This document shows positions 11,768 to 11,858 of a stretch of 64,000 nucleotides of DNA, piece by piece. Source of the stretch: Frigoribacterium sp. (GTDB taxonomy: Bacteria; Actinomycetota; Actinomycetes; Actinomycetales; Microbacteriaceae); NCBI GenBank assembly GCA_025363205.1, contig JANYEI010000212.1:16854-80853 (forward strand), written 5' to 3'. The translations under genes and the position numbers were made by a program. Every line of letters starts with the position of its first letter. The stretch's first letter is position 1. The notes beneath the pieces were generated by a model that saw nothing but the letters and a program-made list of their open reading frames with translations, was not told the origin of the DNA and made no database searches.

Positions 11768-11858
11768 CCCGTGCGAAATGCAGGAACGGGTGTGACGCGC
11801 GTTACGGGTGAGGCTCATCTGCAACATCCGTCACAGAGCGTCCTGCATTTCGCACGGG
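11768..11858. repeat. Long inverted-repeat (hairpin) element, copy A
   Basis: CCCGTGCGAAATGCAGGA (11768-11785) is the exact reverse complement of TCCTGCATTTCGCACGGG (11841-11858). 55-nt core with nested TGTGACG/CGTCACA pair. Homologous to 53346-53430. Confidence 0.9.

Follow-up and report, generated by a model that had tools for sequence, protein, structure and literature searches.

A REPIN-like hairpin repeat of Microbacteriaceae and its probable partner, a predicted AbiEi/Vsr-like nuclease

To our knowledge, REPINs with their RAYT enzymes are the only described short repeats that persist long-term by vertical descent alongside a dedicated, domesticated enzyme, and in all the described cases we know of that enzyme is a Y1 HUH transposase. 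REPINs have conserved inverted ends a set distance apart, with a less conserved spacer between them that is critical in its length and in its ability to fold into a hairpin; compensatory changes occur, and the enzyme gene is flanked by the repeats (PMC3116915). The GI REPIN of Pseudomonas measures 71 bp first to first (Bertels & Rainey 2011, PMC3116915). Here we analyze a long hairpin element, copy A, and its homologue, copy B, in a 64-kb stretch of a Frigoribacterium sp. contig (all 64,000 nucleotides of it are called the window below). The two belong to a family of REPIN-like hairpin repeats of about 78 nt, present in multiple copies per genome across one group of Microbacteriaceae, which are probably non-autonomous and probably maintained by a nuclease of AbiEi-like and Vsr-like make-up. 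The elements in question are these:

11768 to 11858, no strand assigned: copy A hairpin repeat, with perfect 18-bp arms at 11768-11785 and 11841-11858 and a 55-nt interior that has its own hairpin.
11791 to 11835, no strand assigned: structured interior of copy A, of the GTGAC...GTCAC subfamily, on the basis of subfamily alignment and covariation.
53346 to 53430, no strand assigned: copy B, of the same GTGAC...GTCAC subfamily, with arms GTGCGAAATGCAGGA (53346-53360) and TCCTGCATTTCGAAC (53416-53430) that differ by one mismatch.

A preliminary description of this DNA had read copy A as two 18-bp arms separated by 55 nt, and a direct sequence check confirms that CCCGTGCGAAATGCAGGA (11768-11785) is the exact reverse complement of TCCTGCATTTCGCACGGG (11841-11858). 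The family core, GAAATGCAGGA in one arm and TCCTGCATTTC in the other, occupies 11775-11785 and 11841-11851. The nested pair TGTGACG/CGTCACA noted earlier in the interior (11791-11797 and 11829-11835) is present as well. In an unbiased scan of the window for inverted repeats (arms of at least 13 nt, at most one mismatch, loop of 35-80 nt), the arms of copy A rank first, and 8 clusters are recovered compared with 1 in each of three shuffles. The two strands of copy A fold with z = -5.7 and -8.0, a level equaled by none of 200 shuffles. Copy B, which had been called a homologue, is indeed a true one, about 80% identical to copy A across the element and with a single arm mismatch.

A search for further copies had been proposed, and it uncovers a dispersed, multi-copy family. 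We scanned one genome per species, 596 Gb in all, for exact 11-mers in the arrangement GAAATGCAGGA-N40-70-TCCTGCATTTC. The inverted 11-mers, 77-79 nt end to end, occur at no fewer than 118 loci, compared with a chance expectation of about 1 match in the whole collection (arithmetic from 22 specified bases, 31 spacings and 596 Gb). Among the matches listed, all except one, an Acidobacteriota tandem repeat, come from Microbacteriaceae or from unclassified actinobacterial metagenome-assembled genomes (MAGs); named genera among them include Protaetiibacter, Homoserinibacter, Lacisediminihabitans, Glaciihabitans, Cryobacterium, Rhodoglobus, Galbitalea, Schumannella, Pseudolysinimonas, Salinibacterium, and Terrimesophilobacter. 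Two genomes hold at least 13 loci each. Pairs of family members also bracket other genes, namely those for a Phd/YefM-type antitoxin (514 nt apart, L081 2319-2987), a HAD hydrolase (L068), and an ABC transporter (L034). As had been stated from the sequence, no named noncoding RNA family accounts for the element: Rfam has no family there at the gathering threshold or at permissive E-values, and the best match, mir-674 (E = 1.4, 18.8 bits against a gathering score of 93), is meaningless. No match to a described REP, MITE, or noncoding RNA family emerged, so the refutation by such a match that had been named at the outset does not apply. Nor did the full-text literature, with subscription journals outside its coverage, contain a description of the motif or of palindromic repeats in Microbacteriaceae. 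The hairpin family is apparently undescribed so far.

The anatomy of the repeat was counted in about 1 Mb of family loci. A right arm lies 40-90 nt from 144 of the 150 left arms, and the element measures 77 nt end to end in 25 copies, 78 in 65, and 79 in 35, with minor classes of 65 and 90 nt. At the correct spacing, the arms have no mismatch in 130 copies, 1 in 4, 2 in 4, and 3-4 in none. An arm is thus essentially perfect or not there at all, with no decayed tail. Double changes at core position 0 are complementary in six out of six cases (four from G:C to A:T, two to C:G), and palindromy extends outward beyond the near-invariant 11-nt core for 4-5 nt through copy-variable sequence, at 88-91% at position -1 and about 65% at -4. 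G.U and A.C pairs in the outer stem, read on the sense strand, number 46 and 48, with single-arm transitions found on either strand. Interiors, about 55 nt long, are fixed in length. In most copies the interior has no recognisable similarity to the others, even within one genome, and only 18% of interiors fold unusually well (z < -2). Copies A and B belong to an aligned subfamily of 24 members with a conserved interior, where an inner helix of about 14 bp, in which the second GTGACGG pairs with CCGTCAC, shows compensatory changes. Its covariation score is 0.129, compared with 0.097 for shuffles, and none of 500 shuffles reached it; an alternative interior pairing in the subfamily gave no excess. 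The covariation analysis suggested earlier thus comes out above shuffles for the inner helix and with complementary double changes for the arms.

Outside the arms, the family is symmetric in composition, with 48% C at -20 to -11 on the 5' side and 50% G at +11 to +20 on the 3' side. We considered a long extended hairpin formed by these flanks and rejected it: locus-specific complementarity ends about 8 nt outside the core, and beyond that point base composition alone is complementary. Most arms that look solo are additional arms nested around a complete element, symmetrically and about 32-43 nt beyond it on either side. Such nested arms are seen at L008 7661-7866, L034 7063-7216, L069 3614-3767, and L103 1146-1287. 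Regions of this kind are a larger palindrome expanding in mirror fashion, and the mirror nesting links the family to the tandem arrays that flank it. Other explanations of the anatomy were also set aside. Copies of 78 nt can be read ATG...TGA on both strands, yet 77 and 79 nt are common and the strands are symmetric, so peptide coding was rejected. An uptake-signal-like mutational drive was rejected because a tail of partial matches is missing. A recombinase-driven invertible segment was rejected, even though the orientation of the interior differs between orthologues, since 55 bp is too short for recombinase synapsis.

Element pairs 1.0-1.1 kb apart repeatedly bracket a gene for a protein of about 288 amino acids, which has Pfam matches to AbiEi_4 and DUF559/REase_MTES_1575 and none to Y1_Tnp. 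Only 197 homologues are found at E <= 1e-10. Their named sources are Protaetiibacter, Lacisediminihabitans, Rhodoglobus, Pseudolysinimonas, Terrimesophilobacter, and Naasia; the first five genera have the window-type repeat as well. The gene is located between dapD and gltA, and has a window-type element to either side, in both Lacisediminihabitans FW035 and Rhodoglobus; in FW035, a close relative of the window organism, the bracketing elements share the window arms and the GTGAC...GTCAC interior. Naasia and a Terrimesophilobacter MAG have more distant homologues in other contexts, with the same hairpin architecture and other arms, ACCAAATCAAGGAG and ACCCGTTTCAAGGAG. The protein diverges much faster than its syntenic neighbors (40-62% identity against 73-95% for dapD/gltA; L043, L048, L052, L070, and L100). 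The full-text literature, again with subscription journals outside its coverage, held nothing linking DUF559 or MTES_1575 proteins to repeats.

Flanks were surveyed by a motif-free search at 80 metagenomic loci encoding relatives of 37-79% identity, 70 of which had enough flank. Hairpins sharing an arm 9-mer stand on both sides at 62 of the 70, and six more are off by one base. With few exceptions the gene has one hairpin upstream and at least one downstream, and their arm sequences are the same. These hairpins have a median arm of 17-18 nt and a median of about 52 nt between arms; the median distance is 87 nt from the end of the upstream element to the start codon and 45 nt from the stop to the beginning of the downstream element. 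Upstream and downstream cores are identical at 44 of 51 loci, whereas 5000 trials of random pairing average 4.9 and peak at 14. Eleven core types occur among nuclease loci, several of them within one conserved chromosomal context. Arm types tied to nuclease lineages include GAAATGAAGGA, AAATCAAGGAG, and GAAATGACGGAG, and the greater the distance between proteins, the greater that between arms tends to be (Spearman 0.395, permutation p <= 5e-4). These comparisons show that arm sequence differs between nuclease lineages. Two subfamilies coexist in Protaetiibacter intestinalis, a 78-nt CAGAAATG type around the nuclease gene (L208 9825-11100) and a 79-nt TGTCGAAAATG type elsewhere (L209 10437-10515 and 20601-20679; L121 668-746). 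A metagenomic nuclease gene (L129) is flanked by the TGTCGAAAATG type, suggesting a second cognate nuclease paralogue.

The AlphaFold model of the protein has a pLDDT of 93.6. With Foldseek, its N-terminal ~190 residues match AbiEi (6y8q, E = 4.6e-6), in agreement with PADLOC, and its C-terminal ~100 residues match I-Bth0305I (3r3p, TM 0.76-0.80), NGO0050 (3hrl), and Vsr (1cw0). Across 38 sequences E189, D216, E226, D228, and D242 are invariant and H233 is nearly so. The model therefore describes the partner as an AbiEi-like winged helix-turn-helix (wHTH) module joined to a Vsr/I-Bth0305I-like PD-(D/E)xK domain, that is, as a predicted nuclease. I-Bth0305I and related EDxHD homing endonucleases serve as comparators together with Vsr (PMC3239194; PMC3424549), and I-Bth0305I is a multidomain homodimer with a footprint of about 60 bp (PMC3239194). 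Among the roles first suggested for copy A, a protein-binding cruciform is compatible with a partner that appears to carry an AbiEi-type wHTH module.

Approximately 19 copies fall within open reading frame (ORF) calls. Pfam marks some of these calls as artefacts and others as real genes read through in frame (EMQE...SPAF), with at least 7 copies in five gene families: tlyA, a yeiH-like transporter, nadB-like, recN-like, and MMPL. TlyA proteins with arms are no longer than their arm-less homologues. What the tlyA interior encodes is native TlyA sequence, alignable gap-free with the TlyA of M. tuberculosis, and four genomes preserve the arms at the DNA level, using genome-rare codons (GAA TCT CCT GCA TTT). 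In Salinibacterium, tlyA has a segment of the same length without arms. Similarly, the yeiH-like interior encodes a transmembrane helix whose residues are invariant family-wide, arm-less members included, and arm-bearing proteins gain only a variable Ala/Ser/Thr/Pro-rich stretch before the left arm, a stretch that corresponds, in coding form, to the C-rich flank. In-gene copies at L015 3-857, L032 2-1672, L109 3-995, and L091 2-1627 likewise follow low-complexity stretches rich in Ala/Ser/Pro and variable in length; these stretches appear to be the translated C-rich flank with its tandem arrays. In P. intestinalis the tlyA copy, the yeiH-like copy, and one intergenic copy all carry TGTCGAAAATGCAGGA...TCCTGCATTTTCGACA, and the orthologues in another Protaetiibacter genome (MAG 5H245) read ...CAGAAATG...CATTTCTG... 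The TlyA and yeiH-like proteins of P. intestinalis are altered alike, to ..SKMQ.. and ..PAFST.. Insertion of whole elements does not explain this parallel change, which means that the arms changed in place and in concert; the sequences point to arms that were rewritten where they stood.

Lacisediminihabitans is a near relative of the window organism, their flanking proteins reaching 97% identity. In two relatives, at both window sites (L020/L031; L014/L023), the orthologous spacer keeps the element and its perfect arms, but outside the element it is unalignable. For the 78 copies with both neighbors nearby, those neighbors are convergent in 27 cases, co-directional in 45, and divergent in 6, against 45, 120, and 51 in gaps of similar size (chi-square ~15.6, 2 df). 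Copies are enriched behind genes and avoided in promoter-only spacers. The context of the copies, which it had been proposed to record, is thus one in which gene 3' ends are favored, convergent spacers over-represented, and divergent spacers under-represented. With its two GTGAC and one GTCAC, the interior is asymmetric, and its orientation does not follow the direction of the genes. In the orthologue at L023 (1485-1561) it is inverted relative to window 53346-53430, which implies inversion of the interior or its replacement in the opposite orientation, and in a tandem triplet of L028 (6173-6748) it alternates -,+,-.

We propose that the predicted nuclease probably binds the arms through its wHTH module, as a dimer over both arms or over the extruded hairpin. 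The homodimer and ~60-bp footprint of I-Bth0305I make a dimer across both arms plausible, a step that we infer. Nicking or cutting by the nuclease would then lead to the repeats being copied, homogenised, and maintained, and the dispersed copies, A and B among them, would be non-autonomous passengers of the nuclease system. Their location behind convergent genes would be where such DNA is tolerated, with a secondary effect on transcript ends possible; because of the in-gene copies and the association with the nuclease, a role at transcript ends would not be the whole story. At least part of the maintenance would act on the ~17-nt arms in place, by short-patch conversion and not by movement of whole elements, because in-gene copies enclose native codons and arms change in parallel between species.

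Vsr starts very-short-patch (VSP) repair, a sequence-specific rewriting of a few bases. A more specific mechanism, which we put forward tentatively as our best guess and hold to be possible without thinking it the likelier outcome, is that the ~17-nt arms are written and rewritten in place by nuclease-dependent, short-patch templated conversion resembling VSP repair or very-short-tract homing. Such rewriting would install two inverted motifs about 67 bp apart around any sequence, including essential coding sequence, and the installed arms would then be kept identical to the current master variant of the genome. It would explain why the tlyA and yeiH-like copies enclose native codons without a change in length, why rare A/T-ending codons persist in the arms, why arms are perfect or absent, and why the P. 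intestinalis copies share the new arm TGTCGAAAATGCAGGA...TCCTGCATTTTCGACA.

Several observations weigh against maintenance by the nuclease as we propose it. The nuclease gene is absent from the window itself, and for copies A and B the link to it comes from relatives. We infer binding of the arms by the nuclease from adjacency and co-variation alone. The gene occupies a few conserved chromosomal contexts between housekeeping genes; it may not be mobile, and the hairpins adjoining it could be an operator and a terminator. Dispersal of other arm variants within +-3 kb is seen at only 4 of 62 loci. We found no insertion polymorphism that had clean boundaries or showed a target-site duplication. 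Window 22106-22186, a short co-directional spacer, is the element-free orthologue of a 330-bp spacer in L082 (5555-5885) that holds a family member, with flanks only about 75% identical and too diverged for insertion boundaries to be read; the filled/empty pair L011 and L049 has likewise diverged too far. The exact 11-mer requirement inflates the apparent conservation of arms in the primary matches, so the argument from conservation rests on secondary copies and orthologues. Finally, the neighbor orientations depend on genes from a crude GC3-based caller.

It is unlikely, in our judgment, that the repeat is a host transcription or RNA element, that is, a bidirectional terminator, pause site, or 3'-end protector of convergent transcripts, perhaps acting with Rho. 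In such an element a C-rich stretch would lie upstream on either strand, followed by the long stem, and the arms would be conserved as the target of an RNA-binding factor or RNase. The enrichment behind genes and depletion between divergent genes, the symmetric C-rich 5' and G-rich 3' flanks, the very stable stems on both strands, and the conservation of arms at orthologous sites all fit. Simple scans find neither a U-tract terminator nor a sigma-70-like promoter in either window spacer, which agrees with the first reading of copy A as no canonical intrinsic terminator, and the lack of a canonical terminator there fits as well. The U-less bidirectional terminator or insulator proposed at that stage draws some support from position and flanks, while conserved copies inside essential coding regions weigh against it; conserved copies are found in tlyA, yeiH-like, nadB-like, recN-like, and MMPL genes. 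The missing U tract itself counts against termination; an intrinsic terminator was rejected on that ground and for its 18-bp stem around a 55-nt interior with G-rich sequence downstream. Furthermore, the orientation of the interior is independent of gene direction and differs between orthologues, single-arm transitions give G.T and A.C about equally and so carry no RNA wobble signature, and the lineage-specific bracketing of a gene for a putative DNA-binding nuclease is left unexplained. A processed small RNA, also proposed for copy A, finds no support: promoter-like sites are absent, orientation relative to genes is inconsistent, and no wobble bias specific to RNA is seen.

Quite improbable, too, is that the repeats are immobile binding sites for the wHTH-nuclease, whether they act as operators, as decoys, or in organising the chromosome, with selection keeping each one at its own locus. 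AbiEi antitoxin of the AbiE system autoregulates at its own promoter, and the copies beside the nuclease gene would serve autoregulation alone in the same manner. The AbiEi-like module of the protein, the upstream hairpin ending a median 87 nt before the start codon, the conserved contexts of the gene, and the arms conserved at orthologous sites would suit this explanation. It would nevertheless demand that at least 22 specified bases at a fixed spacing arose independently dozens of times per genome, which is implausible, and a tail of partial sites is absent. Tandem and nested duplications of whole elements and single arms, and depletion in promoter-only spacers, also speak against it, and the interior conserved between loci in the window subfamily implies that whole elements were copied. 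An ordinary MITE, an internally deleted insertion sequence (IS) derivative with 17-20-bp terminal inverted repeats and a classical transposase encoded elsewhere, is very improbable. Although the element has terminal inverted repeats, a short uniform length, and many dispersed copies, interiors are unrelated between most copies of one genome despite perfect arms, no target-site duplication is seen, the flanks are related inversely and not directly, and in-gene copies add no length and enclose native sequence. Apart from the DUF559 gene, no arm pair encloses a segment the size of a transposase, and no parent IS was found in 209 loci.

The surroundings of copies A and B contain the following features:

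10883 to 11503, plus strand: MerR-family regulator gene, 3' end towards copy A.
11486 to 11687, no strand assigned: C-rich tandem arrays on the 5' side of copy A (17-nt unit x4.6, 57-nt x2.1, 26-nt x2.2).
11860 to 11904, no strand assigned: GGGAGGGCTGGC x3.8, a G-rich tandem array lying 3' of copy A.
12021 to 12881, minus strand: ParA/MinD-like ATPase gene, 3' end towards copy A.
23681 to 23766, no strand assigned: third hairpin of the same architecture with other arms, GTTCGCGGATCAGGAG and CTCCTGATCCGCGAAC (16-bp perfect arms, 54-nt interior).
49034 to 52879, plus strand: dnaE (DNA polymerase III alpha) gene, 3' end towards copy B.
53280 to 53350, no strand assigned: tandem array of 17/34-nt period on the 5' side of copy B.
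53441 to 53676, no strand assigned: G-rich tandem arrays of 17/21/57-nt and 9-nt periods on the 3' side of copy B.
53689 to 54207, minus strand: flavin reductase gene, 3' end towards copy B.

Copy A lies in a 517-bp convergent spacer between the MerR-family and ParA/MinD-like genes, just as claimed beforehand, and the tandem arrays reported on both sides of it are confirmed; copy B is flanked likewise, in the convergent spacer between dnaE (+) and the flavin reductase gene (-). The 17-nt tandem repeat GCCACCCGCGTCTCCTA (x4.6; 11486-11563) starts within the MerR-family gene and reiterates its last codons and TAG stop. Because this array covers the stop, slippage could alter the C-terminus of the protein. 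The third hairpin (23681-23766) sits in another convergent spacer, directly after a 17-nt tandem array at 23586-23659, and its arms have no match among the 209 loci examined. It may come from a sister family with its own nuclease, its membership in the family of copy A being unproven. The only Rfam match over threshold in the window is mraW RNA (RF01746, 59.8 bits) at 30037-30138, upstream of the cell-division gene cluster; it is ordinary and places the window in an actinobacterial chromosome.

A second system of the REPIN/RAYT design, in Actinomycetota and with an unrelated nuclease, would show that such an arrangement evolved more than once. DUF559/MTES_1575 proteins of AbiEi-like architecture, to which no role has so far been assigned, would gain a testable DNA partner. 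The in-gene copies are a natural experiment in which inverted motifs surround native tlyA and yeiH-like codons and have changed in parallel. If enzyme-directed short-tract rewriting were true, it would amount to a novel molecular drive on coding sequence, and the protein-guided, sequence-installing activity might also be of practical interest. In annotation, the family accounts for oversized, tandem-repeat-rich spacers and for low-complexity Ala/Ser/Pro stretches in the proteins of these genomes.

Among other described systems, Rickettsia palindromic elements reportedly occur both in frame inside protein-coding genes and between genes (Ogata et al. 2000, Science) and are said to insert 30-50 residues. 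The present repeats are likewise palindromic and found both in frame in genes and between them, but the tlyA and yeiH-like copies add little or no length and their interior is the conserved sequence of the gene itself. Integron attC sites were rejected: the arm sequence differs from the R''/L''...L'/R' boxes (GTTRRRY), and copies are scattered between housekeeping genes and not in cassette arrays (intI was not searched for). The MITE class was also rejected, since the TIR-like arms come with no direct flank repeats, interiors are mostly unrelated, and the 209 loci hold no parent IS. As at an AbiEi operator, a protein with a predicted AbiEi-type wHTH (PDB 6y8q) is encoded beside inverted repeats upstream of its own gene; here, however, the repeats are about 67 bp apart, stand also 3' of the gene, and are dispersed genome-wide, and the protein carries a putative nuclease domain instead of partnering an AbiEii toxin. 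In the model, the C-terminal domain superposes on I-Bth0305I, NGO0050, and Vsr and has the fold and the conserved acidic and histidine residues of the Vsr/EDxHD PD-(D/E)xK class, and the ~60-bp footprint of I-Bth0305I is close to the size of the repeat. Unlike I-Bth0305I, the gene is associated with no intron or intein and lies between housekeeping genes, and its DNA-binding module would be AbiEi-like.

The closest likeness is to REPIN/RAYT systems. Both have inverted conserved ends at a fixed distance (67 bp between the 11-mers here, 71 bp in Pseudomonas GI), a less conserved spacer for which length and hairpin ability are critical, and common compensatory changes. Both occur as tens of dispersed, mostly extragenic copies per genome with long vertical persistence, with an enzyme gene flanked by cognate repeats and possibly more than one subfamily per genome. 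The REP/MITE-like mobile palindrome among the roles first suggested for copy A is accordingly the closest of them, in its dispersal, its REPIN-like anatomy, and the cognate nuclease gene it flanks, though it fits no described REP or MITE family. The differences are that the partner is a predicted AbiEi-like wHTH with a Vsr-like PD-(D/E)xK nuclease and not a Y1 HUH transposase, that the arm GAAATGCAGGAG contains no small REP palindrome (none beyond TGCA), that interiors are far more diverged and some copies lie in frame inside genes around native sequence, and that the host belongs to Actinomycetota. We therefore class the element as REPIN-like but with another partner enzyme, and not as a member of REPIN/RAYT.

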